A stretch of 64,000 nucleotides of DNA from Candidatus Micrarchaeota archaeon (GTDB taxonomy: Archaea; Micrarchaeota; Micrarchaeia; Anstonellales; J096), in NCBI GenBank assembly GCA_026982895.1, contig JALWQW010000003.1, positions 10,063 through 74,062 of the forward strand. The letters run 5' to 3'. The notes below the pieces were generated by a model. It made no database searches, was not told the origin of the DNA, and saw only the letters and a list, made by a program, of their open reading frames with translations. The position numbers and the translations under genes were made by a program. Position 1 is the stretch's first letter, and each line of letters begins with the position of its first letter. Positions 7,769 through 64,000 of this stretch are shown one piece after another.

Positions 7769-7810
7769 TCAATACCTATGTTTATAAACTTTTTCACACA
7801 CAAATTAATC

Positions 7811-8539: not shown

Positions 8540-8588
8540 CCTCTTTTTTTATAAACCCTCCGTCGTAATGGATTAGGGAGGTGTTGCT

Positions 8589-11511: not shown

Positions 11512-12051
11512 TCAATTTGTCTTTATGCTGCACATACCTTCCTTGTAGTTATTATCGACATTTACATCCAGTAGCCTCTCATAACTTTGGCTAGCTGAGG
11601 AGTTGCCTTCATGCACATAAATTATGTAGCAGTCGTGCGTTTTCAAGTAATTTAAACACTTTCCTTTGTCCCATTCTATTTTTTCTCCTTTTGAACATGG
11701 CAGTGATTGGCAGTTGTCCATAAGGTTTCCTTCGCATTTATCGCCGTTGAATGCCAAGAAGTTTACAACCTTCTTGGGAAAACTTCTAAGGGCTGTCTGA
11801 TAATATTCTAAACTACAATCCATCACAGGCTTTGCTAATTCTGTATTGTTGGGATTTTCTAGGACAATGCATAGGGGTTTATTCAATATATTGCTGTTCA
11901 TATCTGCAATTCCTATGCTCTGTCCTCTTAACGCTTCTAAACTTGTATTGCTTTGAGGTGTAGAGTAATACAACAATATGCCAAGGGCTATCGCTAATAA
12001 AATAATTCCGAGTATCCATTTTGTGCTCTTATCTATTTCTTGATTAGGCAT
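11512..12051 (-). CDS. Cys-rich membrane-anchored extracytoplasmic protein
   Basis: N-terminal TM segment 'WILGIILLAIALGILLYY'. It has 10 Cys in about 140 aa and several N-x-S/T sequons. Its start overlaps the stop of the upstream 688-aa gene. Confidence 0.45.
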   Translation of the reverse strand: MPNQEIDKSTKWILGIILLAIALGILLYYSTPQSNTSLEALRGQSIGIADMNSNILNKPLCIVLENPNNTELAKPVMDCSLEYYQTALRSFPKKVVNFLAFNGDKCEGNLMDNCQSLPCSKGEKIEWDKGKCLNYLKTHDCYIIYVHEGNSSASQSYERLLDVNVDNNYKEGMCSIKTN

Positions 12052-18100: not shown

Positions 18101-18481
18101 AGTTATATTTATCTCGTCGCCTTTGTTCAAGTCATTCTTAGGAGGTATATACTCTACATAACACTTCCCCTTGCTTTTACAATAAGCCTTTTTCAGTATA
18201 CCTCTTTTGGCGCTTGCGCTTATCTTTATTCCTTCTACTCCCCCACCAAAGGCGTTTCTAACATGTATCTCCATCTTTTTAAGATTGCCATCTGCAATAG
18301 TTATCAAGTCATTGCTCTTATATAATTTTAAGAGACTTCTATTTAGATTATTCATACCTTCAGGGCCATATGTTTTTACCTCTTTAATGCTTTGCGACAG
18401 CGCACTAAACACAAAAACCGCAGCCGCTACACTGACAATTCCTAACCCGAAAATAATGTAGAGTAATTTTTCGCCCTCCAC
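15182..18481 (-). CDS. Giant membrane-anchored surface protein: an array of Ig-like domains plus a C-terminal transglutaminase-like (Cys-His-Asp) domain
   Basis: N-terminal signal anchor 'LLYIIFGLGIVSVAAAVFVFSAL'. Modules of about 90 aa recur, each ending in a 'C-T-x-x-G-x-C-x-V-x-Y' di-cysteine motif (TTCTTKNGACSVTF, DHCTTEDGRCYVEY, SSCDTGGDGKCSVVY, SVCHTGDNGLCKSEVYY). The C-terminal 'NCIDGSLVYATALMSAGIYPKIILESDHAFVCVY...DKDCVEMT' resembles a transglutaminase-like core. Confidence 0.6.
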   Translation of the reverse strand: MEGEKLLYIIFGLGIVSVAAAVFVFSALSQSIKEVKTYGPEGMNNLNRSLLKLYKSNDLITIADGNLKKMEIHVRNAFGGGVEGIKISASAKRGILKKAYCKSKGKCYVEYIPPKNDLNKGDEINITIQTSMGKKTIHKKISLLYPNLDKVLVDVENKTLYANGKDELEMHIKLKNRRDENLPAGYWIRAKIKEGSGEISPKSCTFKPPECTLKYKVGKKSGNTSVSITVINPNREEWEVDEVNKSVSFYVRPLTANDFKIKVGKSNLTKYVDKNTTITIIPLNEDNVAINYQKVRLKATHGKFEAVEGKLENDGNATLCLTEEKYECKVYYIPENNHFGSDKIDITIGNKSKSIDISISEEVTDIRLDLSPSSMLATANKSITINAHVESHGHKVHNGVVVRFHANGEGSFNSTTCTTKNGACSVTFRPAYNGNKDYTIEIDGEVEDVKGKATLKMKRTYPYNLIISTDKDYVVEGGAEATTITVEVVDINGKPVPNTEVDFESTRGDLTLSVCHTGDNGLCKSEVYYKDDDSWWNYYPDNLDISIYVSSDDVNKAFQNYKGVSGANINQLSDNLNRDITLKISRSAGKIRLYTDSYTNELPADGRSRMRIYADVDTISGSPVDDGTVVNFRVYVGPGELDTDHCTTEDGRCYVEYIAGESKYSETVEIVGEAGDAKDSVDIKLKPPEPKEIYLTLNPSTINSGDSCAVEATIKDEIGNGVAGKRVYFSANHGDIDSSCDTGGDGKCSVVYTSSSSFSGVDIIEASAGNLETSKSIVVQGSSEITATIISTSFGDPIIPAFAINSDYFGKTMVIASAENSGSEGFDGRMEISIPDYSYTYTDDISLTPNGKWTEEISLDLNNAALNNLEKRDIQYVVKILDNSGNVVAAATADAELMPANSMKWDSRYYNAIVAWVTTGSQEVHNLVSAAANRLPSRAFIGYGTYSSGCGDDGRSSCTEEESTRLQMKAIYDELNDEGMHYVSTTESGMEGVQRVYTPSQSLEANGANCIDGSLVYATALMSAGIYPKIILESDHAFVCVYLNEDKSDKDCVEMTLIGRYGFDDAVNTGNYEYSHDDIEKELDVEAILHSSHFNVLPI

Positions 18482-21039: not shown

Positions 21040-22953
21040 ATGAGCCTGGCAGATTGGGTCGTTCCTTTTTACTATCTCCGTGATGTGAAAAAGGAGGTTA
21101 GAGAGGCGTGTGCTGCTTCTCCCACTGCTTGCACTGCTACTATATCTTTGTATAGTTTGTCAGTCGTAGCAGACACTCTGTCCGTTCTCGGAGCTCTTTT
21201 CACCTTTGGCACATCTGTTGGGGCAGGATATGGAATTAAAATAGCTATCCGCGAGGCTGCTCTTCGCATTATCAAAGAGACTACTGCCGTTGGACTTGTA
21301 GATATACTTAAACCAGGATCTAAGAAGTTGGCAGAGGGCTTGGCTGGTGCTGTGAGAGGCTTGCATGAGGCAGCAGAGGAGGGACGGTTAAGCTGGGCTG
21401 CCGCTAGTAAGAAGGTTTTGGATATGTATGATTCAGCCAGGCATTATTTTGAGGAAATAGGTGTTCCTCAGCTTTTCAGAGATGCTACTAAACTTTCGTC
21501 CAAGCAGATGAAGACTCTTTTTGGCGAGGAATTCTATAAACTTCTTAAAAAGGGAAAGGAGCTCCCCTCCGCTGTCATTGCTGCTGATAAAAAAGCTATG
21601 TGGCTATCCAACCTCTTTAGTGGGCAATTGGGCGATACAATGCTTGCATTTTATAGAGTGAGCACCAGCCAAGCTATTTTGGATGTCGAGAGGAAGTATG
21701 GTGTAAAAGTTGTCTTATATCCTTTCGGCGGGGATGAAACACTCATGTTAATCCTTCACACAAATGGGAAGGTTGTAGAGGCTGCTGCTAATGAAATCAA
21801 AGAAAGGACGCTGAAGTACATGGAGAAACTTGTAAAAAAAGCTGCTGAGAAGGATCCTGCTTTAAAGGGCGTCATGGACAAAGTGAGCGGCGTAGAATTT
21901 AATATCGCTTATGTCACAACAAAAATGAAAAAGGGTAAAGTTTTATTCAAATCACCTTTTGTTGGGAGGAGGATTAAGTCTTTATCAGCTCACATGGCAA
22001 ACATAGAGGCGAAGCGCTTACTCGGGAAACTGCCTCTAAAACAAAGGCTCATGTTCAAGACTTTACAGAGGCGCATCGCCAAATATGCGCCTAAATTTGC
22101 TCCGGGTATAAAAGATGCTATTGAGGTTGAGAATGCCGTTAAACTTGGTGAAGGCACTTTTACGGCTTTTCGTATAGGGGTGGCGAATGAAAAGAGCTTG
22201 TCTAGTTTTTGGCTACTCACTGAAAAAGCTGGAAAGGCTCTTATGCATGTTAAAAATAAGCAGTTAGGTATCTCGACACTTAACCTTTTGGGGCATGGCT
22301 TTGCTGATAATATGAGGGCGATGGTCATAGATGCTGTCCATGAGGCGGCTGAAGCTATGGGAAAAGAAGTAAAGGTTTATCTTGTTAAGGATGGAGGGCC
22401 CCTTTCCATATACATCGAGGGCTTATCTAAGACAGAATCTGCGGCTGTGCTTAAAAAAGCCCAACAAATCTTTTTGGACAAAGCAGAGTCCTTAGGCATC
22501 TCTAAATGGGGATTCAGGCTTAGAACATTCACAGGAGAGACGAGGGAAGCGCTCACATATAATGTTAGGTTATCTAAATATGGTACAAAGTTCTGTGGAG
22601 ATGCTCTTCATGTGTTTGAAGACAATCGTGAAACAATTTATACTTATTTAGCGGTTGCTAAATGGGATGACGCGCATTTCAAGCTCGCTCTTTCTGCTAT
22701 AGATAAGACGGGATTAGATGGTTTAAAGGCAGTGCTTAAAGAATCTTTGAAGATATGGCACGATAATCCTTCTGCTAGGAATATAGAGGATTTCCTCACG
22801 ATTTTAGGCGAAGTGGCTACAGGTAGAGGCATAAAACTCACTCAAAAGAATTTCAGCAGGCTTATTTATGGCCTTACTACCGCAGGCATATCGTTGAAGG
22901 CAACAACTGCTGGCGGCATACAGGAAGAGAAGATGGAACGCGAAATTAAATGA
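21040..22953 (+). CDS. Large hypothetical protein with an N-terminal hydrophobic segment
   Basis: 637 aa. The N-terminal region 'CAASPTACTATISLYSLSVVADTLSVLGALFTFG' is hydrophobic. The rest is mixed alpha/beta with no recognisable catalytic motif. Confidence 0.5.
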   Translation: MSLADWVVPFYYLRDVKKEVREACAASPTACTATISLYSLSVVADTLSVLGALFTFGTSVGAGYGIKIAIREAALRIIKETTAVGLVDILKPGSKKLAEGLAGAVRGLHEAAEEGRLSWAAASKKVLDMYDSARHYFEEIGVPQLFRDATKLSSKQMKTLFGEEFYKLLKKGKELPSAVIAADKKAMWLSNLFSGQLGDTMLAFYRVSTSQAILDVERKYGVKVVLYPFGGDETLMLILHTNGKVVEAAANEIKERTLKYMEKLVKKAAEKDPALKGVMDKVSGVEFNIAYVTTKMKKGKVLFKSPFVGRRIKSLSAHMANIEAKRLLGKLPLKQRLMFKTLQRRIAKYAPKFAPGIKDAIEVENAVKLGEGTFTAFRIGVANEKSLSSFWLLTEKAGKALMHVKNKQLGISTLNLLGHGFADNMRAMVIDAVHEAAEAMGKEVKVYLVKDGGPLSIYIEGLSKTESAAVLKKAQQIFLDKAESLGISKWGFRLRTFTGETREALTYNVRLSKYGTKFCGDALHVFEDNRETIYTYLAVAKWDDAHFKLALSAIDKTGLDGLKAVLKESLKIWHDNPSARNIEDFLTILGEVATGRGIKLTQKNFSRLIYGLTTAGISLKATTAGGIQEEKMEREIK

Positions 22954-33464: not shown

Positions 33465-34763
33465 TTAGAAAGGATTAGTAAATGGAGATCCTCCACTGTT
33501 CCTCTGGTCATTTATAACGCTGCGCGCTGTTAGCTCTACTAGCTGTCTTTTCATTCTCTCTAAACGCGCTTCGTCCGCTGGGAAGACGCCTATTTTGCTC
33601 AGAATCACATCTATCTCCTCTTTCATATCTGACCTTTCTTCTCGGAGGAATGTAAGTGCAGTGCCAACGTCGTAGTTCACTTTGACCCTTTTCACTTTGT
33701 CTACCATCTCCTCTTTGTTGGTAATTAAGCCACCCATATCCTCGAGTATCTTTTCTATTTCCTCTTCTGAGACTACATCCTCAACGTACATACTTATTTG
33801 ACTGTCAAGCTCACCTATAGCTTTTCTACCACCATCTAAATAGAAGGTGAGGTGGTTTCCATTTAGTTCAATAGATTTGAGATTAAGTGCTATTATTTTG
33901 TATATAGACAAGTCTTCCTCTTCTTTGCCTCTTTCCTCCTCACTTTCTTCAGCAGTTCTTTCTTCATCCTTCAAGTTAACTTTTTGGAATCTATATCTCT
34001 CAGCGATTTCATTCAGGAGTTTGACAGCTTCATTTCTTTCGGGATTACTGCTTAACTCCACTAATTTCTCCACAGCATCAGCAACCACCTCTTCGTCGTT
34101 TATTAATTCATTTTTTAGTTTCTCATCTATTTCGTTGCTTATCGTGGAGGCAATCAATAAATCCTCTTTATCTTTTATGAAATCTGCGAAACTCACCTTC
34201 AATATGTTGGCTAGTTCGATGAGGTTAGATAGGGCATTCTCTGAATCTCCTATGTCGCTTACAGTTACTTTGTTACTTCTTAGTATTTCCTCCACTGTTT
34301 CTTTATTCTCTATGAGTAGTTCATTGTCTAACTTAACTAACAGCTTAAGCACATCTGCTGTTTCCCAGCTGGATAACGGGCTTATATAGGTTGTGCCTCT
34401 GTTAGCAAGGTTTGTCTTTAACCACCGAATTATCTTTTTGCTGCTTTTGGCGAGCTCCTCTTTACTATAAGTGTTGAGTAAGCGTATAATCTTCATTTTA
34501 GTTTCGCTCCCATAAACATACATCCCTTTTTCTAGGAGTTGCCTTATATGAGGTTTAAGGCCTCTAGTTGCTAGTTCTTCCAGTATTTCATTGTGGATGG
34601 ATAGACTATCTATTTTTCCAAACTCTCCTAATAACTCCTCATCGCTCATTAGTCTGTAGCTTTTTATGTCCTTCCAAGGGTCGAAATCTCTACCATTGCG
34701 CAACTTGTATCCTCTCCACTTCTTTTCCTTAAAAGAATCCTTCCTCTTCTTTTTGAATGCCAT
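33465..34763 (-). CDS. Acidic hypothetical protein in the same strand block as the AAA/vWA pair
   Basis: 432 aa, highly charged and helical, with no recognisable motifs. Confidence 0.45.
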   Translation of the reverse strand: MAFKKKRKDSFKEKKWRGYKLRNGRDFDPWKDIKSYRLMSDEELLGEFGKIDSLSIHNEILEELATRGLKPHIRQLLEKGMYVYGSETKMKIIRLLNTYSKEELAKSSKKIIRWLKTNLANRGTTYISPLSSWETADVLKLLVKLDNELLIENKETVEEILRSNKVTVSDIGDSENALSNLIELANILKVSFADFIKDKEDLLIASTISNEIDEKLKNELINDEEVVADAVEKLVELSSNPERNEAVKLLNEIAERYRFQKVNLKDEERTAEESEEERGKEEEDLSIYKIIALNLKSIELNGNHLTFYLDGGRKAIGELDSQISMYVEDVVSEEEIEKILEDMGGLITNKEEMVDKVKRVKVNYDVGTALTFLREERSDMKEEIDVILSKIGVFPADEARLERMKRQLVELTARSVINDQRNSGGSPFTNPF

Positions 34764-34767
34764 GCGT

Positions 34768-37692
34768 TCACCTCCACCAGTTAGCTATTACTTTTGCTAT
34801 ATCCACACCTAGCTTTTTTATGTCCTTGTTTACTATCCTATTTCTTCCATACATTTCCTTATACTCTGAACTATCCTCGTGTTGCACTATTACGCTCACC
34901 ACGTTTATTAGCTCTTTTTCCGCCTGTTTAACCGCTTCTCTAACATCTCTAACTGCTTCACTCTCTTCATAAGATGTGCCCCCATGAAGGGGCTCCCCGT
35001 CGCTAACCACTATGAGCAGTTTGTTCTTGCTGTTCCTTTCTTTTAGTTTCTTGATTGCGTGTCTTATTGCTGCACCGTCTCTGTTCTCGTAAACACAACA
35101 AAACCCTACGTTTTCTGGAATGTCCAAGTAAGGTATCTTAGCTATGCCTGAATCGAAGTCCTTTATCTTAAGATAGTATGTTAGTTCTCTTCCGTGCACT
35201 GAAGCAAACCCTGCTATCTCATATTCTAATTCCCCTAAATCTCTTAGCGCCTTGGCAAGCACGTAAACCATATCTCTCTCCCCTTCAATAGCTCCATTAC
35301 GTGCTGTGGAACCGCTTAGGTCTATTAGGATTAGCACTGAGGCCTTGTTGGATTCATCTTTCCTCCTCTGCCAGAACTCGGGTTTTGCTAGTGCATTCTG
35401 CCTTACTTCATTTTTCCAGTTGAGATAGGCCTTTACGTTAAATCTGCCTCTGGTCTCATCTAAGCTTTCTCTAATCTTTCTCTCAACCAACTCCTCAAAG
35501 CTTTTGTGGATTTTTTGAATTATTCCATTGTAGCCTCTAGCGACGTAGCCCTCAGTTTTTGGGTATTCCACTTCCATAACAGGATGTCTGAACTGTGTTC
35601 CTTCGTAGTAATGGAGATCTCCTTTAGGGTCTCTATATTTTAGACCCTCTGTCACTTCACTATGGACATATTCATATTCTTCTCTCTCCTCTTTGCTGAG
35701 CTTGTCTAGCCCCCTCTTTTTCAGCTCTTTGCTCTTTTCAGCTTCCTTCTTTAGGCGTTCTAGCAGTTTCTCTTTATCCTCTTTGCTATCCACTAATATA
35801 GGCATTGAGATGGGATTGGTTAAGCCCCTTGGGACTTTATATCCTCCTTTCTTTTTGCTGTCCATCTCACTCTCTTTAGGATTGTCGCATTCTCTACCAC
35901 TTTCTCTTTCTTCTGAGGATGGCTCCTCATCCTCCTTTCCCAGCTCTTTCTTCCTCTCACCCAATTCGCCAAGCCTTTTCTCCATCTTCTTCTTTAACTC
36001 GTCTAAGCTTCCTCTGCCTTTACTCATCTTGTCCATTTCTTTCTTCAACTCTTCCAGAGCTTCCTGCTCTTTGCCAATCCTATCTAGCTCTTCCCTAATC
36101 TCGGAGAGCTTCTCTTCAACATCTTTAGCTCCTTCAGCATCACCCCTTCTTTTCATCTCCTCCAATTCTTTGCTCAGCTCCTCAGCTTCCTTCTCCAGCT
36201 CTTTCTTCCTCTCACCCAATTCGCCAAGCCTTTTCTCCATACTCTCTTTTGCCACTTCTTTTAACTTCTCAGCAGCTCTTTTCAGGTCGCTCTCATCGAA
36301 CTCTCCTTCCTCTGACTCACCGGCTTTACTTTCTACAATTTCTTTACCATACCATAGGAATATGAGCTCCATGATTTGCATAGAGATGTTTATAGAGTCT
36401 GCTATGTCACTTCCAATTTCCTTAACGGGTTCCACCATCTTAGCAGCGAGATTCAACTTTTCCCTCAATTTGGGGTGAAGCTCACCTTTAACTTTGCCGG
36501 TGTACAAATATTGTAATAGGCCCTCTAAGAAGTTTGATAGATTGTCCTCATATGTGAGTGCAGGTCTATCCTTTGCGTAAACTTCGATCATGGTTTTTAT
36601 GTACTTTCTGAAACCTGGGAAGCGCTCCATGGAAAGTGTGTCTATACGGATATCCTCTACGATGTTTAGTAAGTATTGGAAGAGCAACCTTTCTGGAAAT
36701 TCTTTTGCTACTTCATAAAATGTTTTGTATTCCTCTTTTCCTTCCACTCCGAATAGCCTCTTTATATCCTCACTAAATTTTTCATCCTCTTCGTCCCTTA
36801 TACCAATTCCTGAGATGATCTTTTTCTGGGATTTTAGGTTCTTTATGAGCTCCCAGTTTATCCTGTTTTTCTCTACTATTATGCTTCCATCTGGAGAAAT
36901 GTGCATGGCTTCATGGATCCCTTGCATTATATAAGTGTACTTATTTAGCACCTTGGTTGGGAACTTATCAATGGTTTTGGGTAGGTATATATAAGGGGGC
37001 AAGCTTTTTGGTCTGTCTCCACTCTTTATTATTGGCTCGTATAGCCCCCTTACTACAATCTTGGCCATTCTACTTACACGTTTTTCCATTTCCTCAAGAG
37101 AGACTTTTCTCCTTTCGTGGATTTTGGTGAAGTTTTCTAATACTCTCTCCCTGTTTTCTAGATCTTCTTTTAGCTTTTCTTCATCTTCCCTTACTTCTCT
37201 TATCCAAGGTGTCACATGGGCAAAGGGGTCTGCCGAGAGAATCTCTTTGGCTATTTTGTTAACCTCTAGGCTGTCGTTGAGGTCTGCCTCTCTAAACAAT
37301 TCATCTATCTCTCGAATGTACTCCTCTATACGTGGAACAGGCACACCTTTAGTTAGGAGCGTTCCCACCAAGCTTACATTCTCTACGAGCCCTGGCAGTG
37401 TTTTGAATTTCATCAATAGTCCTATAGCGTCGTCTAGCTCACCTTCTTTTAGTTCTCTATAGCTTCTTATGTTTTTTAGCATTAGTTGGATTATTAATCT
37501 CTGCTTTTTGTCATCCGTTTTTTCCTTAATATTATTCAGTCTCTCTTTAACTTTGCTTTCATTGTCTGCGAAGGCGCTGTATCCACTATAGTAGCTGCTT
37601 GTCCCGTACTCACTGTATGGATATGCAGTTCCCCAATAATCTTGTGTTTTCTTATCGGCTTTTTTTCTCTTCCACAACTTCTCTATACCCAT
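34768..37692 (-). CDS. Large coiled-coil protein with a C-terminal von Willebrand factor A (MIDAS) domain (CbbO/NorD-like partner of the AAA ATPase)
   Basis: C-terminal 'VLILIDLSGSTARNG' (DxSxS MIDAS) and 'LLIVVSDGEPL'. The central region is extremely K/E-rich coiled coil with an internal repeat. The stop is 2 nt from the AAA gene. Confidence 0.65.
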   Translation of the reverse strand: MGIEKLWKRKKADKKTQDYWGTAYPYSEYGTSSYYSGYSAFADNESKVKERLNNIKEKTDDKKQRLIIQLMLKNIRSYRELKEGELDDAIGLLMKFKTLPGLVENVSLVGTLLTKGVPVPRIEEYIREIDELFREADLNDSLEVNKIAKEILSADPFAHVTPWIREVREDEEKLKEDLENRERVLENFTKIHERRKVSLEEMEKRVSRMAKIVVRGLYEPIIKSGDRPKSLPPYIYLPKTIDKFPTKVLNKYTYIMQGIHEAMHISPDGSIIVEKNRINWELIKNLKSQKKIISGIGIRDEEDEKFSEDIKRLFGVEGKEEYKTFYEVAKEFPERLLFQYLLNIVEDIRIDTLSMERFPGFRKYIKTMIEVYAKDRPALTYEDNLSNFLEGLLQYLYTGKVKGELHPKLREKLNLAAKMVEPVKEIGSDIADSINISMQIMELIFLWYGKEIVESKAGESEEGEFDESDLKRAAEKLKEVAKESMEKRLGELGERKKELEKEAEELSKELEEMKRRGDAEGAKDVEEKLSEIREELDRIGKEQEALEELKKEMDKMSKGRGSLDELKKKMEKRLGELGERKKELGKEDEEPSSEERESGRECDNPKESEMDSKKKGGYKVPRGLTNPISMPILVDSKEDKEKLLERLKKEAEKSKELKKRGLDKLSKEEREEYEYVHSEVTEGLKYRDPKGDLHYYEGTQFRHPVMEVEYPKTEGYVARGYNGIIQKIHKSFEELVERKIRESLDETRGRFNVKAYLNWKNEVRQNALAKPEFWQRRKDESNKASVLILIDLSGSTARNGAIEGERDMVYVLAKALRDLGELEYEIAGFASVHGRELTYYLKIKDFDSGIAKIPYLDIPENVGFCCVYENRDGAAIRHAIKKLKERNSKNKLLIVVSDGEPLHGGTSYEESEAVRDVREAVKQAEKELINVVSVIVQHEDSSEYKEMYGRNRIVNKDIKKLGVDIAKVIANWWR
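35941..36240. repeat. Exact 45-bp direct repeat inside the vWA gene
   Basis: 'CAGCTCTTTCTTCCTCTCACCCAATTCGCCAAGCCTTTTCTCCAT' occurs at 35941-35985 and at 36196-36240, 255 bp apart. Both copies encode 'MEKRLGELGERKKEL'. Confidence 0.75.
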
Positions 37693-44399: not shown

Positions 44400-46940
44400 G
44401 TGAAATCGTTGCCGAAATCGCCAAAAAGAGCTAAAAAACGCTTCATAATCATACGCGAGCCAAAATATACTAAGAGGTTCAGCGTTAAAAAGGAATCTCC
44501 TATAGACAAGTTGTTGGCAGCGTTATCCCCTCCTAAAAAAGTTAAGAAGGAAAGGGGTGTAGTGAAGAAAGTAGAAGAGAAGGTAGAGGTAAAGGGAAAG
44601 GATATAACTATTGGAAAGCTTTTGCCTGTCATTATTCTTTTACTCTTTATTGGCTTTGGTTATTGGCAGTATATGGAGTTTACTAAACTGCTTAAATCTG
44701 CTGCTGGCACCACATCCCGTGCTGCGGTTACTAATTCCATTTTAGTCTCGCCTATTTCATCATATATAACTGATTATGGAAAGTGGACTAATCCTTCTAA
44801 GGCTGTTATCTTCAATATAAATAGTAAAGATGCTGTGGATGTCTCTTATGGTGCTTTAAACAAGCAATATTATGGTGCTGTCTATGTGTTGTCTACATCG
44901 AAGCTTCGCAATGTTGTGGAGGGATTAGATGGTTTCATAGAAAAGGCAAAAGCATCACATCTGCTTGTTCAAAGGATATACTCACCCCATCAACTTCTTA
45001 ATCTTCCTAAAAAATCAATAGTTATAATCATCTCTGAATTCTTTCCATCTGAAGTTGCACCATATATATCTACTTTATTGTCCAGAGAAGTGCATATTGT
45101 TATTGTTGGAGCTTCCCCGGATTATCAAGAGGAGAGTGGCTTCTTTAAATCTGCAATGGGATTTTGGTCTAATTATGGTATAGCCTTCTCTGCCTATGGA
45201 GGATCAGCTAAACCTTTGAAAGCTAAAACTGTTAAATATAAAGTTGTAGGTGGCAAAACAGTAACAACAGATGGGCTGGTTGGTCCTGTTACTTATTTGA
45301 GAGATATACATATAGATAAGAAGCGCACTTATCCAGGAGATTTTGTATTTTTAACGGGTTCTGTTAGCCAAGATTTCAACAGATATTGGAAGAGTTCCTC
45401 AGATTTTTCTGCCGATTTGTATAGTGTCACAACATCTCTTATCAATAAATGGTTATCCGGACACTCTTCATATAAAGGTATAAAAGGTGCCGCATCGCTA
45501 GCTTATGGTACTTCAAGTGGAACTGGTGATGCATTCATATTTACTAAAACTTCTCAAAAGGGTAAACCTATTGCATATATGTTTGGCTATGCTCGAAAGG
45601 ATTATCCTGGCAAGGCATTATTTCATGATGTATCTCCTATTTATCCTTATTATATCTCTGGTCAAGCGTCTTTAATTGAATTCGAAGCATCACCTACTGA
45701 GCCAGATAGATTCACAAAGGTTTTGCTTAGTGTTTTTGACAGTTCATCCAAGGAGGTTGATTCGTTGCCAGTAAATAAAGGCTCTCTTATCCCAGCTGGT
45801 GTCCCTATGGAAGTGGAGTATTTCAATAAAGAGTTGAAGGAGGGCTCATATACATTTGTCTTCACAGATGCTAATAGTGGTGAAATATTTGCTAGAAGCT
45901 TTTTGGAGATGGGCAAGCCCACTGTTAGAGCAAAGGTTGATTTTACAAAAGCTCGATTTGGCTTTACATTTTTAGTTAATGGAAAGCCGTATCCTGTTCG
46001 TTCAGTAACCATTAAATATAAGGATTGGCATGCCACTTATAACAATATAGATCATGTTGTGGTTGATTTAAGTGATTTATTTGGTGGTGCTGTACCCTCA
46101 GGCACTTATGAGTTCGAGGTTTATATAGCTGGCGTAGAAAAGCCATATAAAATAAAATTCACAAAGGCAGACACAGTCGGTATAAAGCGGCTTTTATCGC
46201 CGACAAACATCATAATGATTCTCCTAGCCGGCGGCTTTTATATAGCAGGCGCTATTTTAAAGAGGCGTGAGGAATCACCTTACAGTATAGATGTGCCGGA
46301 TTTCGCCCCTGTTGAATATGAAACTATAGAAATTACCGAAGAGCAGCTCTTAAATGCCTTTGATGTCGTCAATGATTACTACAAATGGAAGCTTACGCCA
46401 TTAACTCTAGATGATATTAAGAAGGGCATTCAAATGGTTCTCATGAGAAAGGACTTAGTCCTCAACGACTTTAATGTTGAACTTGTCCTTGAAAATCTAG
46501 TTAAAGAAGGACTTATCCTTAGAGTAGATAAATTCTATTTGAAGAAGGAGTGGACTGAAAAGGGCTTTAGCGCCGAGCAGCTTATAATGTTCAGGGAATT
46601 GCGTGATACTGCCATTGAATCTGCTATTCCTTTCAAACCTTTATCCAAAGCGCTTCCACACACAAAATTAACTCTCCCCTGGCAGCAATTTTGGGTTTAT
46701 TTATATAATCCTCTTCAGAGGGAATCTATAATTAAGCACATTGTTAGAAATTATTCGCCGAAAGAAGATATTGTTCAAGTTATATTATTCTATGATGATT
46801 TTGAAAAAGAGTCCTTTGACCTAGTGCTTAGCGACGGCCGAAAAATAACCTCTCTCATAAAAGGCTATATCGACAATGAGTTCGTCTTCATCTTCACTCT
46901 AAAAGAGTTTATGAAAAAATTAAAGCAGCTCAAATCATAA
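44400..46940 (+). CDS. Large bitopic membrane protein with a basic N-terminus, a large extracytoplasmic domain and a cytoplasmic C-terminal domain
   Basis: 846 aa. TM1 is 'LLPVIILLLFIGFGYWQY' at about aa 75. TM2 is 'IIMILLAGGFYIAGAIL' at about aa 600. The N-terminal 70 aa are K/R-rich. Confidence 0.5.
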   Translation: MKSLPKSPKRAKKRFIIIREPKYTKRFSVKKESPIDKLLAALSPPKKVKKERGVVKKVEEKVEVKGKDITIGKLLPVIILLLFIGFGYWQYMEFTKLLKSAAGTTSRAAVTNSILVSPISSYITDYGKWTNPSKAVIFNINSKDAVDVSYGALNKQYYGAVYVLSTSKLRNVVEGLDGFIEKAKASHLLVQRIYSPHQLLNLPKKSIVIIISEFFPSEVAPYISTLLSREVHIVIVGASPDYQEESGFFKSAMGFWSNYGIAFSAYGGSAKPLKAKTVKYKVVGGKTVTTDGLVGPVTYLRDIHIDKKRTYPGDFVFLTGSVSQDFNRYWKSSSDFSADLYSVTTSLINKWLSGHSSYKGIKGAASLAYGTSSGTGDAFIFTKTSQKGKPIAYMFGYARKDYPGKALFHDVSPIYPYYISGQASLIEFEASPTEPDRFTKVLLSVFDSSSKEVDSLPVNKGSLIPAGVPMEVEYFNKELKEGSYTFVFTDANSGEIFARSFLEMGKPTVRAKVDFTKARFGFTFLVNGKPYPVRSVTIKYKDWHATYNNIDHVVVDLSDLFGGAVPSGTYEFEVYIAGVEKPYKIKFTKADTVGIKRLLSPTNIIMILLAGGFYIAGAILKRREESPYSIDVPDFAPVEYETIEITEEQLLNAFDVVNDYYKWKLTPLTLDDIKKGIQMVLMRKDLVLNDFNVELVLENLVKEGLILRVDKFYLKKEWTEKGFSAEQLIMFRELRDTAIESAIPFKPLSKALPHTKLTLPWQQFWVYLYNPLQRESIIKHIVRNYSPKEDIVQVILFYDDFEKESFDLVLSDGRKITSLIKGYIDNEFVFIFTLKEFMKKLKQLKS

Positions 46941-51085: not shown

Positions 51086-52537
51086 ATGGGATTAGCTAAA
51101 ATGGCCTCTGCATCGACTGTAAAAACCCTTGCTCAACTCGTTGTCTCGTTTATCTTTGCATTTATTCTCTTTCGCTATACTGCTACAAATGTTGTTGGCG
51201 AGTATTATTTTTGGCAGTCACTCTTATTCTTCGGCGGATTGATTTTTGGCTCCATTACTGGCGCCGCTTCTTACATCCTGCCGAAAGCTGGTAAAAAAGC
51301 TGTGAACTACATAATAGCAGCTTCACTTGTTATCTTGCCCATTGCTTTTCTTGTGTATGTGGTGGTATTTGCATATTTTGGTTTGGAGCATTTTGTCTGG
51401 CTTGCCCTTATATCTGCTCTTTCCAATATAGCAACATTCACTATCGCATCTCTTATAAATTCATACAGGGCAAAAGATTATGTTTATGTTTCCTTCGCGA
51501 CATATGCAGTTAAGATTATTTTTCTTTTGCTATTCATATTTATTTTTGGCAGCCTGAGTTTTTGGACACTTATAATATTAGTGCTTCTTGCCCAATCTCC
51601 TGCACTTATTTTATTTGTTAAAATGCTTCTACAAGTTAGGCCGTCCGTTTCTGATTTCATATCTAGCTTCAATAAAATCTTATCTCATTGGAAAGCTGGT
51701 TTTTTCGCATATTCCGTAAATGTCTTAAACTCAATTATTCTCATATCTGATGTTTTCTTTATAGGCGTCTTTTTTACAATGGAGGATACAGGTATATACA
51801 ACGCTATAGGTAATCTTGTAAAATATGCTATGTATGCTATTCCTGGTGGTATCGCTGCCTTTGTCTTTCCTATGGCAGTTAAAGAGGGGAAGGGTTTTTT
51901 GAAGAAGGCTATCTTTTTTCTTACCCTGCTTTTGCTTCCTCTCGTCGTAATTGCAATATATCCAGTCCCTTTCATAAAGGTAATAACGGGTGGTTATCAG
52001 GATTTTGCTAATATAACTCTCTTCTTTTTACCAGCTCTTTTATTTGTTCCAATATCTGCTGGGCTGATGCGCTTCTTCTTGGGTAGGAAAAATTACAATG
52101 TTCTTTTGTATCTCTTCATCGTTGCAGCTGTTAATCTCGTTGTCAATTATTTCTTAGCCGTTGATGCTGATATGTGGTTATATGGTATAGTCCTTGCATC
52201 CTCTATATCTGCGGTGTTGTTTGCTATGCTACTTTCATATCTCGCTTTAAAAGAACGGATTTTAGATGCGTCTTTTGTGCTGAAATATCTGCTTCAAAGC
52301 TCTCTTTTAGCTGTGATTCTGTATGCTATCTCTACACATCTTCCTTTACCAAAGACTTTTGGTGATTTATTTGCTGCTCTTATCTACAGCATTAGCGCCA
52401 TTGTTGTTGCGTATATTTTGAATATTCTTCTCTCCATTGCTATTTACAATAAACTTTTCTTTGAGAGCTTTGAAGATGTAAAGCGTTTATTTGGCAGGCT
52501 TGCTGGCAGGTTTTTTAAAACTCCTTCTAATAATTAA
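51086..52537 (+). CDS. MOP-superfamily polysaccharide/oligosaccharide flippase (Wzx/MurJ-like)
   Basis: 483 aa with 12-14 predicted TM helices and short loops. It is adjacent to a glycosyltransferase region. Confidence 0.5.
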   Translation: MGLAKMASASTVKTLAQLVVSFIFAFILFRYTATNVVGEYYFWQSLLFFGGLIFGSITGAASYILPKAGKKAVNYIIAASLVILPIAFLVYVVVFAYFGLEHFVWLALISALSNIATFTIASLINSYRAKDYVYVSFATYAVKIIFLLLFIFIFGSLSFWTLIILVLLAQSPALILFVKMLLQVRPSVSDFISSFNKILSHWKAGFFAYSVNVLNSIILISDVFFIGVFFTMEDTGIYNAIGNLVKYAMYAIPGGIAAFVFPMAVKEGKGFLKKAIFFLTLLLLPLVVIAIYPVPFIKVITGGYQDFANITLFFLPALLFVPISAGLMRFFLGRKNYNVLLYLFIVAAVNLVVNYFLAVDADMWLYGIVLASSISAVLFAMLLSYLALKERILDASFVLKYLLQSSLLAVILYAISTHLPLPKTFGDLFAALIYSISAIVVAYILNILLSIAIYNKLFFESFEDVKRLFGRLAGRFFKTPSNN

Positions 52538-58210: not shown

Positions 58211-59290
58211 ATGGAAGATTTAATCAAGAATGTCCTGGGTGACAAGGGTAGTGAAAGCAGCCGTGATGACGGCGTTATGAGCAACGACCAGATAAAAATT
58301 GTAACCGTCGGTGTCGGTGGTGGTGGAAACAACACCATAAACCGTTTGATAAAGTTTGGCGTCAAGGGCTCTGATTTAGTAGCCATAAACACAGACCAGG
58401 AACACTTGAACATCATAAACGACAAGGCAAAGAAGGTGCTTATAGGAAAATCCATAACAAAAGGTTTAGGCGCTGGCGGCTTCCCTGAAATGGGTGAAAA
58501 AGCTGCTGAAGTTGATAAACCCCTTATTCGCGAAATTTTGGAAGGCGCCCAACTCGTATTCATATGTGCTGGTATGGGTGGTGGAACCGGTGGTGGTGCT
58601 GCCCCTGTTGTAGCTGAAGTAGCAAAGGAGATGGGTGCTATAACAATAGCAATGGTTACCTATCCATTCAAGCTCGAAAAGGCCCGCCGCAAGAAGGCTG
58701 ATGAGAGCATAAAGAAGCTCCGCAAATATGCAGATAGCGTAGTTATCTTAGATAACAACCGTTTGGTTGAGCTCTTCCCCAATCTTCGCATAACCGAGGC
58801 TTTCTCTGTCGCTGATGAGATTTTAGCTAGGGCTATTGGTGGCCTTGTTTGGACAATAACCCAGCCCAGCTTAATCAACATCGACTTCGCGGATGTGAGA
58901 AGCATTATGCAAGGTGGCGGCGTTGGCTTCATAGCTGTCGGTGAAGGTAGAGGTAATGAGAAGGTTAGACAAGCTGCTGAAGGTGTTGTCAAGAACCGTC
59001 TCTTGGATGTCGATTTCGAAGGGGCTAAAGGTGCTTTAATCCACATAACAGGTGGAACTGACTTAACCCTTGGCGATGCCATACAAGCTGGTGAGCACAT
59101 CACAGAGAAGATGGACCCTGACGCTAATGTCAAGTGGGGCGCTCGCATAATGGACAACTATGAAGGCAAGCTCGAGATTGTTGCCATCGTAAGCGGTGTT
59201 AAAGGCGCGAGTATAGCTGGGCAAGCTATGGAGCCGGAAGAGAGCACCCTTTATTTAAGCAGCTCGCCAACTGGCTTGGATACCCTCTGA
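58211..59290 (+). CDS. ftsZ: Cell-division GTPase FtsZ (tubulin/FtsZ family)
   Basis: 'GVGGGGNNTINR' and 'NTDQEHL' (NTDaQaL). T7 loop 'GMGGGTGGGAAPVVA'. 359 aa. Confidence 0.75.
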   Translation: MEDLIKNVLGDKGSESSRDDGVMSNDQIKIVTVGVGGGGNNTINRLIKFGVKGSDLVAINTDQEHLNIINDKAKKVLIGKSITKGLGAGGFPEMGEKAAEVDKPLIREILEGAQLVFICAGMGGGTGGGAAPVVAEVAKEMGAITIAMVTYPFKLEKARRKKADESIKKLRKYADSVVILDNNRLVELFPNLRITEAFSVADEILARAIGGLVWTITQPSLINIDFADVRSIMQGGGVGFIAVGEGRGNEKVRQAAEGVVKNRLLDVDFEGAKGALIHITGGTDLTLGDAIQAGEHITEKMDPDANVKWGARIMDNYEGKLEIVAIVSGVKGASIAGQAMEPEESTLYLSSSPTGLDTL

Positions 59291-59911: not shown

Positions 59912-62900
59912 CTAGCCTTCAAGGCAGAGTGCTTCCATCATTAACACGAGCATGGCCTTTTTATCCGCTTCTATGCTAAAGGGCTTCTGGAACTTCGAAA
60001 GGTTCTCAACTACCTTTTCATATAAACTCTTATCACCTTTCCAGGTCTCTATAATTTTGCTAGCCTTTCTCCTTATATCTGAGTTACTACCAAACCTTGA
60101 AAGCACCCATATCTCTCCTATAAATTCATCTTGCAATTCGAATCTCTCAATAAGTTCGAGACCACGTCTTACTATAGATTCCTTGCTTTTCAGCATCTTT
60201 CCTAGAATCAGGGCCATTCTTTCTTTCTCCTTTTTCGTCATATTCGAGTAGAGCTTTTTTGGCTCCTCGGCCCATCGCTCACCTAAAGCCTCCCTTACTC
60301 TTACCCGCACGCCTTCTGATCCATAGGTCTTCCAACCTCCATACCTCACAATCATCCAAAGAAGGGCCAATTCGGGGAAAAATTCTTCTTGAATTCCGCT
60401 CTCCTCGATGAACTCCACCACCGGTCGCATATAAGATTTATCCAGCTCTCCTTTGAATACCCTCATAAATACGTCTCTGAAATTCTCTTCGATGAGTTCT
60501 CTTTCTCCCTTACTTGCTTGCTTGTACACCTCTCTTGCTTCCTCTTTGTCTCCATACGCATACAATTCATAGGGGAGGAGTTCTTTTTCCAAACCCAACT
60601 CTTTTGCCATGCTTGACCCTAAGCCTCTAACCTCTTTTTTCTCACTGAGAAGGTACCTTCGCACTTTATTTTTTATTTCATCCTTCTCTTTACCTTCGAG
60701 CCCCATATAAATATCCTTCAGAGACTTTTTACCAAGCTCTTCATGGCTTTTCCAAGCCCATTCTCCTGCCCATGTTGTAAAGGAGAGGAAGATAAGCTCC
60801 CGAAGGAATTGCTTCTGCAGATGGAGCTCTCCTATCAAAAGAGCCCGTGTTGTGTTGGATGTCTCTGCACTACCGATGGTCTCTAAAATCTTCTTGGCCA
60901 GCTCAACATTCTCTCTCTTAACTACCTCCAGAGGCTCTTCATTCTTGCTAAGGTGCCAATCTCTCCAGTATACTAGAGTTTCGTGGACGGATGCCCTTAA
61001 AGAGTTCTTTCCTTCCCACTCTCTAGTTATTGCTATCTCTACTAATGAAGGAAGAATCCAATCTTGAAGGTCAAAGTCCATAGTGAGACGGAAGCCATGA
61101 TCTCTTGTTTTTGTTATTGGCGATTGGATATCCTTTTTTACCTCTTCTATAAGCTCTTGGGCTAACTTTGGCTCCTTCTCCATGATTATGTCTATGGGCC
61201 TCTTGCCTTTTTTGAGGAGCTCATCCTTCCAAGAAAGGAAATCTTCTCTTACATCTGCATCTCTTCTATCGAATTGAACAAACTCTGCCAAAAATTCCTC
61301 CTCTATACCCAAGGAACGGATAAGGGTAGCACCTATTTCATAATGTGTCCATCTTAAGCCCCCCTTTTCTTCCTGAGCCCAGGCTCTTATCCTCTTGATG
61401 ATTTCATCGGCTAACTTAGGATCCTCTTCCCTTACCACATCTATAAGCCTTCTCCCTTCCTCTTTCACTTCTTTGCCTACAGAAAAGAGTATCTCTCTCA
61501 AATTATTAAGGTCGCCTGAGTAGAGCTCCTCAACCTTGTCCGAAAGAAGAAATTCTAATATGTCTCTAAGCATTACTTTGCCCATGCCTAACTCTTTTAT
61601 TGCGAATATTGCTAGTTCTATATGCCTCTTTAGAACGGTTCCTTCTTTGCTCTCTTCCTTTAGCCACTTAGGTATCTTCTCCCTCATTTTCTCTTCGAAT
61701 AGGTCTTTGAAAGAAGTGCTGCGAATAAACCTGATAACATTTTTCCCTTTTTCTATATCGAGGCTCTCTAAATCGTTTATTAAGTTGATAATATCCTTTT
61801 GAAGGATTTCTGTCATGCCGAAGAGAAGAGCTAATTGAATGCCCCATTTTTGCTCCTTTACATCTTTGCTCATGAGGTGCCTCCTAACGTTCGCTGTTAG
61901 TTTCGCTAACAATTCTTTATCCTCTCCTTCCGAGAGCGCGTTGTAGAGAGTTTTTCCTTTAAGGCGCTCTTTCCACTCCTCGAAAGTCTTTATTATCAGA
62001 ATGTCGACGTTTCCCATATGGAATCTCTTCTCAAGTAATATCTCTACAAGCTCCCTAGCATACAGATCTTGAATACCCAAGTCATTAATTACCTTGAGAG
62101 TAGCAGAAGTCTTCTTCCAATCTGAATCCCTCCATTTCTTTATGTAGTCTTTTATTTTTGCTTTTACTCGCTCTTGCTCTTCACTGCTTAGCTGCTTGAA
62201 GAGTTCTTTTAAGTCTGAGCCATCGAAGGCCCCGGCTACAGCGAGCTCTGCAAAAAATTCCTTCCATAAACCTAAGGCCTGCACCATCTTTACTCCAACG
62301 GCTATTCGTTCATCTTCCAGTGTTCTTTGAAGAGGCGCGAAATAGTAACTCTCCAACCTCTCCTCGATTTTATTCATCAAATCACCATACCTTTCTCTTA
62401 TGATCTCTATGGGTTCTCTACCTTTACTCTTTGTTCTTTGACTCCACAAGAGAAGTCCCCCGATAAGAAGGTCTCTCGTCTCCTTTACATCCTCTTTCTC
62501 ATGTGCTTGTAGATCCTCGATAGTAAGGAAGGCATCGAGAACACTTCCAACGTTCTCGTCCCTGACCCCGAAATAGCTCACAACCCCAGCAGCCACTCGC
62601 TTTTTCCTTAAATTAATGCTCCGTAACCAGCCTTTCGTGAGCTCCAATAACTCTTCCCTCTCCTCTTCATGAAGAATCTTTTTCCATATCTCTTCTGGTG
62701 CCCTAACATAAAGCTCTGGCTCCTGGTCCCACATATAGTCTGCCTCCTCTCTTATGGGCACTAAAGAATCGTTTCTTAGAAGGATAAGCTCTGGGACAAG
62801 CTTCAGGTGGAGTCTAAACTTATCAATTGCTTGTAGGACAAACCATCTCTTAGCTTCTCTATTGGGGTATTCCTTAGACTCGTAGAAGTCATCTCTCTCC

Positions 62901-63901
62901 TCTATAATGAGGTTGCCATTCTCGGCATAACAAGGAATACAGCTGTGGCTCTTCGCCCATCTTTTCAATTTTCGTATTATTCTCTTTTTCTCCTCCTTAG
63001 GCAGGGCCTCATACATGGCAGCAGCACTGTCGTATCCTTCCCAGGCCCTTTTAAAGAGAGATTCGGCCGTTTCTCTCACCTTTTTGTCCCTTACTCCTTT
63101 GATATAGGGATAATCAGGGTAGTGGTCCCACGCTAATAACATGAGCTCGAGGAAGAAACGACTTTCCAATCCAAGAGTAGATATAGCCATAAGAGCTGCT
63201 TTGATGCCGTATCCCTTGTCTAATAGCTCCTCTGTTAATTCCACTACTCCTCGCTGGTCTTTCTTTGAGAAGGCGTTGAATATTTTCTCTGACGAATGGC
63301 CACCTGTATAGGTCTCTAGGAGGCTTTTGGCTCCTTCGCCTACACTTCCTTTCTTTTCTGGTGAGAAGCTAAGAAGGAAAAGATGAGAAAGAAATCTTCT
63401 CTCTACACCCAATTCTCTTATAACTGCTGGTAGATTTAGATCGCTCCTCCCCCTCATAAGCTCTTTCCATTCCTTGGTGATTTGGGCAATTATTCTTGCT
63501 TTTGTTTTGGGAGTTAGTTCTTTGTAAAGCTCTTCAGGACTTTTCATGGTCGATTTTAAAGCCTCTTCTGCTGCCTCTCGGAGCTCTTCATCTCTATACT
63601 TAATGACCATTAATTCAAAGAGATGCTCTTTCTGAACGTGTAATTCCTTGACGAGCTCTATGGCTTTCTTCTTTATTTGTTTATCTTCACCTCTAAGGAA
63701 GGTCTTTATTCCTGCTCTTACACGCTCCTTTTCATTCTCCTCTAACCTCTCGTAGAGCCCTCTCATTCCGTTAGGGTTTTTCCGAATAATAGCCTTAACT
63801 GCTTCTCTCATTTCTGGCTTGTCGCTCTCTTGAAGAGTGAGTAAGTCTAGTAGGAAATCGCTGAGGAGCTCCGTTCTCTCAAGGAATTTAAGGGCTGCCA
63901 A
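59912..63901 (-). CDS. Giant all-alpha modular repeat protein (1329 aa) of unknown function
   Basis: About 100-aa modules repeat at least 9 times. Each carries a 'hxxLG[ILM]xxEFhxELhhL' motif. Examples: 'RELGVERRFLSHLFLLSF', 'ISTLGLESRFFLELMLLAW', 'INDLGIQDLYARELVEIL', 'IRSLGIEEEFLAEFVQF', 'KELGLEKELLPYELYAYG', 'IEESGIQEEFFPELALLWM', 'IERFELQDEFIGEIWVLSRFG'. Confidence 0.55.
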   Translation of the reverse strand: MAALKFLERTELLSDFLLDLLTLQESDKPEMREAVKAIIRKNPNGMRGLYERLEENEKERVRAGIKTFLRGEDKQIKKKAIELVKELHVQKEHLFELMVIKYRDEELREAAEEALKSTMKSPEELYKELTPKTKARIIAQITKEWKELMRGRSDLNLPAVIRELGVERRFLSHLFLLSFSPEKKGSVGEGAKSLLETYTGGHSSEKIFNAFSKKDQRGVVELTEELLDKGYGIKAALMAISTLGLESRFFLELMLLAWDHYPDYPYIKGVRDKKVRETAESLFKRAWEGYDSAAAMYEALPKEEKKRIIRKLKRWAKSHSCIPCYAENGNLIIEERDDFYESKEYPNREAKRWFVLQAIDKFRLHLKLVPELILLRNDSLVPIREEADYMWDQEPELYVRAPEEIWKKILHEEEREELLELTKGWLRSINLRKKRVAAGVVSYFGVRDENVGSVLDAFLTIEDLQAHEKEDVKETRDLLIGGLLLWSQRTKSKGREPIEIIRERYGDLMNKIEERLESYYFAPLQRTLEDERIAVGVKMVQALGLWKEFFAELAVAGAFDGSDLKELFKQLSSEEQERVKAKIKDYIKKWRDSDWKKTSATLKVINDLGIQDLYARELVEILLEKRFHMGNVDILIIKTFEEWKERLKGKTLYNALSEGEDKELLAKLTANVRRHLMSKDVKEQKWGIQLALLFGMTEILQKDIINLINDLESLDIEKGKNVIRFIRSTSFKDLFEEKMREKIPKWLKEESKEGTVLKRHIELAIFAIKELGMGKVMLRDILEFLLSDKVEELYSGDLNNLREILFSVGKEVKEEGRRLIDVVREEDPKLADEIIKRIRAWAQEEKGGLRWTHYEIGATLIRSLGIEEEFLAEFVQFDRRDADVREDFLSWKDELLKKGKRPIDIIMEKEPKLAQELIEEVKKDIQSPITKTRDHGFRLTMDFDLQDWILPSLVEIAITREWEGKNSLRASVHETLVYWRDWHLSKNEEPLEVVKRENVELAKKILETIGSAETSNTTRALLIGELHLQKQFLRELIFLSFTTWAGEWAWKSHEELGKKSLKDIYMGLEGKEKDEIKNKVRRYLLSEKKEVRGLGSSMAKELGLEKELLPYELYAYGDKEEAREVYKQASKGERELIEENFRDVFMRVFKGELDKSYMRPVVEFIEESGIQEEFFPELALLWMIVRYGGWKTYGSEGVRVRVREALGERWAEEPKKLYSNMTKKEKERMALILGKMLKSKESIVRRGLELIERFELQDEFIGEIWVLSRFGSNSDIRRKASKIIETWKGDKSLYEKVVENLSKFQKPFSIEADKKAMLVLMMEALCLEG

Positions 63902-64000
63902 TGCATGGAGGGTATTACTGCTTAATAACTCTCTTCGTATGTAATTTTTCAGCTGTTCTTTTTTGTGTTTAGGAAGCCTGCGAATACCTTCTTTAATTCG

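Follow-up and report, generated by a model that had tools for sequence, protein, structure and literature searches.

The minus-strand gene at the end of a 64-kb stretch of DNA from a Candidatus Micrarchaeota archaeon (contig JALWQW010000003.1; the whole stretch is called the window hereafter) encodes P0001, a new and highly diverged protein of HEAT type, probably an alpha-solenoid, that most likely works like, and descends from, HEAT-repeat proteins. That P0001 is a HEAT-type helical-repeat protein of a Micrarchaeota-type family is very probable, and the best explanation overall, which we consider probable, is a HEAT alpha-solenoid serving most likely as a cytoplasmic protein-binding scaffold. 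What our analysis shows is that the repeats exist, that they are homologous to those of HEAT-positive relatives, that structure prediction yields helical hairpins and that the family is narrowly distributed; the main outcome is that an apparent "novel repeat", as the original prediction from the DNA letters had it, is reclassified as a very diverged HEAT array. The family is previously undescribed, extremely narrow and of Micrarchaeota type (DPANN), and P0001 belongs to it by its repeats.

Internal repeats and relatives of P0001

Repetition within P0001 is visible in pairwise comparison, in which 100-residue segments match other parts of the protein, displaced by about 80-95 residues, at BLASTP E-values as low as 1e-7. 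A module hidden Markov model (HMM), seeded at seven literal 'LG[LIVM]' sites and then iterated, converged on 16 modules. Cutting at the module starts gave 17 pieces of 45-105 amino acids (aa), namely 16 full modules of 61-105 aa (mean about 83) and a terminal partial one, where the original prediction had counted at least nine modules of about 100 aa; the five motif strings that it quoted are all found in the open reading frame (ORF). The modules were scored in a leave-one-out test, each with an HMM built without the scored module and against 200 shuffles. Of the 17, 16 scored 10-38 bits, where the shuffles averaged about 0-2 bits (z 4.6-22.9), and 15 stood above all 200 shuffles, while the module at residues 479-573 tied the best shuffle and the last 45-aa piece, taken alone, was not significant (z = 0.6). 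The internal repeats are thus genuine and the periodicity significant, with modules that share a mean identity of 18% and a maximum of 27%.

Direct searches returned little. Pfam and NCBIfam gave sub-threshold noise alone on the whole of P0001, no enzyme or other domain was found with Pfam, NCBIfam, PADLOC or a PDB sequence search, and the PDB sequence search yielded nothing below E 0.19 with either P0001 or the module profile. A word-indexed homolog search with P0001 recovered only the protein itself, and the same kind of search with a short module alignment found P0023 alone and missed even the target. An alignment of the 17 modules of P0001 (A1), used as a profile in an exhaustive search of 1.84 billion representatives at E <= 1e-3, gave 28 matches, comprising the target and 27 others, and an orphan could in this way be placed through a profile built from its own internal repeats. 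The best matches (P0002-P0008 and P0010) have E-values of 5e-69 to 6e-11 with 3-10 matched stretches each. About 10 of the 27 form one family, often as tandem paralogs, on a few metagenome contigs and one Micrarchaeota metagenome-assembled genome (MAG), and the few relatives lie in DPANN archaea, where a search had been advised. We counted as family members P0002-P0008, P0010, P0011, P0013, P0029 and P0030. A full-length family profile found 11 proteins in a 5.8-billion-cluster database, with P0001 at E 6e-60. No relatives appeared in JGI metagenome scans with the crisp module alignment and with P0001 or in an IMG/VR scan, and no further member was found in the window or on L001, the 96-kb ENA metagenome contig (JOHN19-1_SAMN10217895_METAG-scaffold_160) on which P0001 is encoded. 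A full-text literature search returned no paper on a HEAT repeat in Micrarchaeota or DPANN, nor any for the MAG or BioSample identifiers.

The relatives carry a crisp repeat of about 75 aa, 'DVK.EYE.M..EEKE.VKE.IREAARSD....R.AAAKLIGELGLQEEFK.ELMLLMFD....VR.AAEDAWKKAGL', and the family supermodule of about 75-90 aa, 'Y..M..EEKE.VKE.IREA.RSD...R..AAKLIGELGLQEEF..EL.LL.FD...VR..AE.AW', is present in the target. Most of them also share an N-terminal domain, '...PLEE...LKREAAKLLR..GDW..LGEALYAIYKQDKEKAF.L...', which P0002 as stored lacks, and a C-terminal tail, 'NPF..(12-13 aa)..LAMxxLC[SLI]', whose penultimate cysteine is invariant. No member is larger or more diverged than P0001, which has 16 modules where its relatives of 325-965 aa have 2-10, and its mean module identity of 18% contrasts with averages of 34-55% in other family members (48-55%, up to 78%, in P0002 and P0003); its modules are old and not recently diversified.

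A looser group among the matches (P0012, P0014, P0016-P0019, P0021-P0024 and P0027) has the same supermodule of a linker plus two HEAT units, with the consensus '..IY..L.EE.K..L...I..Y..S..W..R..A..AI..L.L.....L..D.D..VRE.A'. The N- and C-terminal signatures are missing from this group except in P0016, which can be aligned to the N-terminal region and has 'LCY' as its last residues. P0009, although within the score range of the best matches, was rejected as a likely false positive; by eye it is an animal repeat protein, possibly pyrin- or death-fold-like; P0015 is likewise a likely false positive of the profile search, and P0020 and P0025 are probably so.

Among species representatives, the family matched one contig in 185,579 genomes, WAMF01000023.1 of 'Candidatus Micrarchaeota archaeon isolate S016_84_esom', which carries six paralogs on one strand in two tandem groups (755 and 334 aa; then 624, 325, 965 and 705 aa). 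The remaining members come from metagenome contigs that share habitat and samples with the target: P0010 is encoded on a different scaffold of the same ENA assembly, whereas the Logan run of the target also holds P0007 and the tandem pair P0008/P0013. The contigs of P0007, P0008/P0013 and P0010 correlate with the window in tetranucleotide composition at 0.94-0.95, against a baseline of 0.82-0.95 for 10-kb chunks of the window versus its rest and 0.85-0.88 for the Micrarchaeota contig. These signatures are compatible with, and do not prove, several paralogs in one organism or population.

HEAT assignment and predicted structure

Five of the relatives (P0002, P0003, P0004, P0005 and P0018) exceed the Pfam gathering scores of both HEAT_2 and HEAT, with HEAT_2 scores of 70, 32, 51, 46 and 58 bits against a cut-off of 27.7. 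The target modules are homologous to the supermodule of these relatives (hhalign 98.8%, E 1e-16, 74 columns), and the claim that the modules are novel therefore fails. To represent canonical HEAT, 33-aa repeats were taken as pairs from P0026, a weak A1 match that is an ordinary HEAT protein; P0028, also a weak match, is canonical HEAT as well. Against these pairs the family profile of 57 modules gave 96% (E 4.5e-9), its crisp subset 92%, and the modules of the target by themselves 78% (E 1.7e-5). All of these alignments keep one register, in which 'eKe.vke.Ire..kS....R.aA.kLI.eLG' falls on a first HEAT unit and 'Lq.EFl.EL..L..D...VRe.A' on a second that follows it. The module consensus splits into two units of about 35-45 aa, each of two antiparallel helices with 'D..VR..A' and hydrophobic core positions, and the helix boundaries in the structural model agree with this split. 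P0001 is thereby linked to HEAT transitively, through homology to proteins that pass the HEAT models.

Other repeat classes fared worse. No TPR, PPR, PUF, mTERF or ARM model matched, the best being a sub-threshold Arm_3 (E 0.035, 14 bits against a cut-off of 28.8), and neither a Ran-binding importin-beta domain in Pfam nor a PDB sequence match pointed to importin-beta or karyopherins, to which the Foldseek matches show 10-13% identity and TM <= 0.32. P0001 is not an importin/karyopherin, TPR, PPR, PUF or mTERF protein. The original description of the protein as not obviously HEAT, TPR or PPR consequently stands for TPR and PPR, which have no Pfam match, and falls for HEAT, given the profile links and the HEAT solenoids retrieved by Foldseek; likewise, its proviso that the protein might match a known family such as HEAT-repeat importins came true for the HEAT superfamily and not for importins as such.

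Structure prediction with AlphaFold2 (AF2) was carried out on two parts of the protein. Residues 209-1408, modelled with 11 relatives as the alignment, gave a mean predicted local distance difference test (pLDDT) of 63.9, a predicted template modelling score (pTM) of 0.36 and 75% helix, in keeping with the all-helical protein originally proposed; the sole strand residues form a low-confidence beta-hairpin in the insertion of module 5 ('SHSCIPCYAENGNLIIEE...'). Foldseek against PDB returned 63 matches to this long model at E <= 1e-3. The top matches are all HEAT solenoids (CAND1, SF3B1, mTOR, Kap123, transportin, importin-beta, CRM1, RRP12 and condensin subunits), and the 30 best are without exception HEAT or related alpha-solenoids. 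A second model, of residues 1067-1408 (342 aa), was built with an alignment of three non-overlapping internal segments and ten relatives and reached pLDDT 80.7 and pTM 0.69. Each module in this fragment has five helices, a short one ('LKDIYMG', 'PKKLYS') and four of 10-19 residues (A, B, A' and B'), and Foldseek pairs it with designed armadillo proteins, importin-alpha, symplekin and a CLASP TOG domain. Confidence is low for the terminal helix 'DKKAMLVLMMEALCLE'.

Several observations weigh against this assignment. Neither Pfam HEAT (PF02985) nor HEAT_2 (PF13646) matches the whole of P0001 at E <= 10 or any of the 17 modules at E <= 1, and ARM and TPR models likewise match neither the protein nor, even at E <= 1, its modules; the assignment of the target is for this reason transitive and joined to structure prediction. 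The AF2 alignments are shallow (12-14 rows), the Foldseek template modelling (TM) scores of the long model are low (0.15-0.33), and the fragment matches are weak (best E 5e-3, TM <= 0.29), so the superhelix geometry may differ from that of known HEAT and ARM arrays. The family N-terminal domain 'LKREAAKLLR..GDW..LGEALYAIYKQDK' is missing from residues 1-46 of P0001. Beyond the window, at L001 9629-9880 (-), an 83-aa ORF ('...LRKEAIKLLREVKEAKGDWKMLDRALYAIYKQDKEKAFELVGLLVAIRS') matches the N-terminus of P0003 (BLASTP 1e-18, 50% identity); it is divergently oriented, 120 bp upstream of the P0001 start, and as read from the DNA the family N-domain at the target locus is a separate, divergently transcribed gene. 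At the other end, P0001 closes with 'KPFSIEADKKAMLVLMMEALCLEG', by eye like the family 'NPF...LAMxxLC[SL]' tail. A tail HMM scored this C-terminus no better than shuffles, 329 of 1000 of which reach its score, and we dropped the tail as a significant family match.

Two small, otherwise unrelated proteins, at L006 1203-1895 (-) and L003 9051-9461 (-), end '...LLFLLIELCV' and '...NPFSEKSPTFNSLLFFLSHLC', respectively; both close with a hydrophobic helix whose cysteine is the last residue or adjoins it, which hints that an 'LC-x' end may be a shared signal in these organisms.

Taken together, P0001 would be a cytoplasmic alpha-solenoid of about 16 tandem supermodules of about 83 aa each. A supermodule would open with a short linker helix, 'p.eLY..L', and continue with two helix hairpins of HEAT type, the first pairing helix A ('eEKe.I..kI..WL.S') with helix B ('R..A..LI.eLG') and the second pairing helix A' ('L..EF..EL..L..D') with helix B' ('..VR..A...L..W'). 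In the model, the LG[IL]xxEF..EL motif that drew attention to the protein runs from the last part of helix B through the turn into the first part of helix A'. The family probably grew through duplication of this two-HEAT supermodule, and P0001 most likely acts as a non-enzymatic scaffold or adaptor that would offer a long and variable helical surface to other proteins. The solenoid scaffold first suggested for the protein stays the best reading, and the helical hairpins in AF2 and the HEAT solenoids in Foldseek, at TM 0.15-0.33, are suggestive of hairpins stacked into a solenoid; by generic analogy with HEAT arrays, a scaffold function with protein binding has roughly even chances.

Alternative readings and genomic context

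The original idea was that the modules represent a new kind of helical-repeat fold with no relation to HEAT, ARM or TPR. It draws on the absence of any Pfam repeat match to the target or its modules, on a period of about 83 aa against 35-45 aa for HEAT, and on a confident fragment model whose PDB matches are weak (TM <= 0.29). Against it, homologs score above the HEAT and HEAT_2 thresholds, a profile-profile chain leads from the target through the family to canonical HEAT, the 83-aa period equals two hairpins plus a linker helix, and the top 30 matches of the long model are all HEAT or related alpha-solenoids. The new-fold reading is largely refuted by these results and we hold it to be very unlikely. 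Still less probable are nucleic-acid-binding repeats of the PUF, PPR, mTERF or TALE kind, whose modules would each recognise a segment of RNA or DNA: the long array of similar helical modules would suit them, and the 'LG[ILV]..EF' turn is superficially mTERF- or helix-turn-helix-like with one weak HTH_32 match (E 0.1-9), but P0001 has a net charge of -3 with no basic bias, Pfam gives no PUF, PPR, mTERF or TAL match, and the profile and fold links point to HEAT. We regard this reading as extremely doubtful.

Elsewhere, family genes lie directly downstream of a conserved same-strand cassette, found at L004 9991-16219 running into L003 1-1101 (Micrarchaeota contig) and at L006 2093-9774. The cassette encodes a protein of about 240 aa ('D.FF..PKMGL.AMLR'), a P-loop NTPase of about 920-950 aa, a protein of about 100 aa and an orphan of about 1300 aa; the NTPase matches AAA at 39 bits, nSTAND3 and NPHP3_N near threshold and NACHT faintly, and cassette orthologs are 34-44% identical between the two diverged genomes. 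This suggests a functional link between the cassette and the paralogs that adjoin it. One could accordingly imagine the family as the sensor or adaptor arms, detached and free to diversify, of an immune or regulatory NTPase system of STAND/AAA type. Such a system would resemble NLR or Avs proteins, with the repeat sensor encoded in separate paralogous genes, and the target would be a distal giant paralog. The placement behind the four-gene cassette in two diverged genomes speaks for this, as do the tandem paralogs with 2-10 modules at 48-55% (up to 78%) identity, which indicate recent expansion, and the weak match P0026, in which HEAT repeats are followed by a region that by eye resembles a P-loop NTPase. 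However, no cassette occurs in the 64-kb window or the 10 kb beyond, P0007 stands alone amid housekeeping genes without it, PADLOC assigns no defence-system membership and yields generic P-loop matches only, and the target modules are old rather than freshly diversified. We judge such a system, and its likeness to NLR or Avs proteins, to be unlikely. A bolder version is more doubtful again: the family would be a fast-diversifying recognition arm split from an archaeal STAND-like NTPase, 'NPF...LC-x' a new docking or lipidation signal, and the target an ancient, fixed giant paralog that shed its N-domain.

P0001 might alternatively be a membrane- or division-associated scaffold whose hydrophobic C-terminal helix with its cysteine (AMLVLMMEALCLEG) anchors or docks the solenoid, with the nearby ftsZ hinting at the divisome. 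All canonical members end in the 'NPF' tail with its invariant penultimate cysteine, a similar hydrophobic helix whose packing AF2 does not predict confidently ends the target, and ftsZ (58211-59290) is 622 bp from the target gene. Yet ftsZ is on the opposite strand with a convergent, unrelated 159-aa ORF in between, followed outward by gatA and gatC on the same strand as ftsZ; a transmembrane helix would need more than the roughly 12 hydrophobic residues present, the target tail does not exceed shuffles against the family tail model, and such a helix at the end might do no more than cap the solenoid. The adjacency to ftsZ was discarded as functional evidence and given no weight because no homolog shares it, and we find anchoring or a divisome role highly improbable. 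A very diverged HEAT array serving as a cytoplasmic scaffold is the reading we retain.

Gene extent, window content and comparison with known systems

The stop codon at 59912-59914 terminates a long minus-strand ORF, as had been reported. The ORF as listed, 59912..63901 (-) with 1329 aa and a TTG start, is too short: past the TTG at 63901 the frame continues in translation to base 64000 with no stop, and the 33 added codons ('RIKEGIRRLPKHKKEQLKNYIRRELLSSNTLHA...') carry on the same repeat pattern. The second large ORF that had seemed to begin near the window end is accordingly the same gene, uninterrupted to base 64000. The identical database protein, P0001, has 1408 aa and is also encoded on L002, a Logan contig from run SRR13853571. 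The ATG is situated 138 nt outside the window end; a TATA-like 'tttataaatata' and the purine-rich stretch 'agagggag' stand in front of it, both assigned by eye, and the gene measures 4.2 kb. No signal peptide was found at the true N-terminus (MIRKRRQEERVKKK...), as first proposed from the shorter frame, and the protein holds 3 cysteines in its 1408 residues (Table 1).

Table 1. Positions in the window of the P0001 gene and its repeat modules, with z-scores from the leave-one-out test
Feature	Position	Strand	Remark
In-window part of the P0001 gene	59912..64000	-	residues 47-1408 and stop codon 59912-59914
Module 1 (residues 47-125)	63764..64000	-	z = 10.9
Module 2 (126-198)	63545..63763	-	z = 14.1
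Module 3 (199-280), with 'RELGVERRFLSHLFLLSF'	63299..63544	-	z = 17.8
Module 4 (281-373), with 'ISTLGLESRFFLELMLLAW'	63020..63298	-	z = 14.6
Module 5 (374-478), split by an insertion	62705..63019	-	z = 9.0
Insertion in module 5, SHSCIPCYAENGNLIIEERDDFYESKEYPNRE	62855..62950	-	lone CxxC, 2 of the 3 cysteines of P0001
Module 6 (479-573), weakest full module	62420..62704	-	z = 4.6
Module 7 (574-641)	62216..62419	-	z = 11.7
Module 8 (642-728), with 'INDLGIQDLYARELVEIL'	61955..62215	-	z = 14.3
Module 9 (729-809)	61712..61954	-	z = 5.9
Module 10 (810-895)	61454..61711	-	z = 8.9
Module 11 (896-978), with 'IRSLGIEEEFLAEFVQF', top scorer	61205..61453	-	z = 22.9
Module 12 (979-1066)	60941..61204	-	z = 13.2
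Module 13 (1067-1137)	60728..60940	-	z = 13.5; in AF2 fragment model
Module 14 (1138-1198), with 'KELGLEKELLPYELYAYG'	60545..60727	-	z = 17.8; in AF2 fragment model
Module 15 (1199-1290)	60269..60544	-	z = 12.4; in AF2 fragment model
Module 16 (1291-1363)	60050..60268	-	z = 18.7; in AF2 fragment model
C-terminal 45 aa (1364-1408), partial module ending in the hydrophobic helix AMLVLMMEALCLEG	59915..60049	-	z = 0.6; low pLDDT

The other identifiable genes of the window look archaeal (FtsZ, GatC/GatA, GatB and geranylgeranyl reductase), and an Rfam scan of the window gave a single tRNA only. The window is rich in orphan proteins, many of its large ORFs having no Pfam match; those without one at E <= 1e-5 include proteins of 432-846 aa at 44400-46940 (+), 12044-14110 (-), 21040-22953 (+), 51086-52537 (+) and 33465-34763 (-). 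A 1099-aa protein at 15182-18481 (-) carries Ig-like Big_1/invasin D3 domains (E 5e-33) and is possibly a surface adhesin. Additionally, a 974-aa protein at 34768-37692 (-), in which Pfam recognises nothing but a CobT-type VWA domain at the C-terminus (E 3e-6), sits within a minus-strand block of strong negative GC and AT skew (32-40 kb). Beyond the window, L001 encodes two large orphans at 4003-5919 (-) and 5985-8642 (-), of 638 and 885 aa, both with acidic, proline-rich low-complexity regions and the longer also with Gly/Ala-rich hydrophobic stretches; they share a C-terminal domain, 'TAH.GEGIWHI.ER...NKGGPWLKLNA.ID.L', are paralog-like and have no Pfam match on record.

The interest of P0001 lies mainly in its size within a DPANN genome, the rarity of its family and the expansion of its paralogs. 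DPANN archaea are commonly described as very small in genome size, and because of this a 4.2-kb gene for a non-enzymatic scaffold would be a notable investment. The family numbers about a dozen proteins among some 15 billion and one genome among 185,579, yet within that genome it is tandem-expanded. Its partners, if identified, might show how these symbionts organise a cytoplasmic process or a defence system.

Prokaryotic and archaeal HEAT proteins (PF13646, PF02985 and PBS-lyase-type) share with P0001 the A/B hairpins with 'D..VR..A..aLG', the tandem arrays and the lack of a catalytic domain. They differ in being built from a single hairpin of 33-40 aa, whereas the target unit is a five-helix supermodule of about 83 aa with two non-equivalent hairpins, too diverged for the Pfam HEAT models; moreover, with about 32 hairpins in 1408 aa, P0001 looks long beside HEAT proteins of prokaryotes. 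STAND/NLR-type NTPases with fused HEAT, TPR or WD40 arrays share the association of repeats with a P-loop NTPase, here by synteny (L004/L003 and L006), and the paralog expansion; in the present family, in contrast, the repeats are in separate genes, the NTPase match is generic and no cassette lies near the target. Among known structures, the 1200-aa model is closest to the giant solenoids of eukaryotes (CAND1, SF3B1, importin-beta/karyopherins and the N-terminal region of mTOR), with Foldseek E-values of 1e-6 to 1e-4 and a probability of 1.0. Identity to them is about 10-13%, TM-scores are 0.15-0.33, no importin N-terminal (Ran-binding) or other signature domain was detected in the target, and the context is archaeal; nothing but the type of repeat speaks for common ancestry. 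P0001 resembles these proteins in its size, its all-helical build and its scaffold or adaptor logic.

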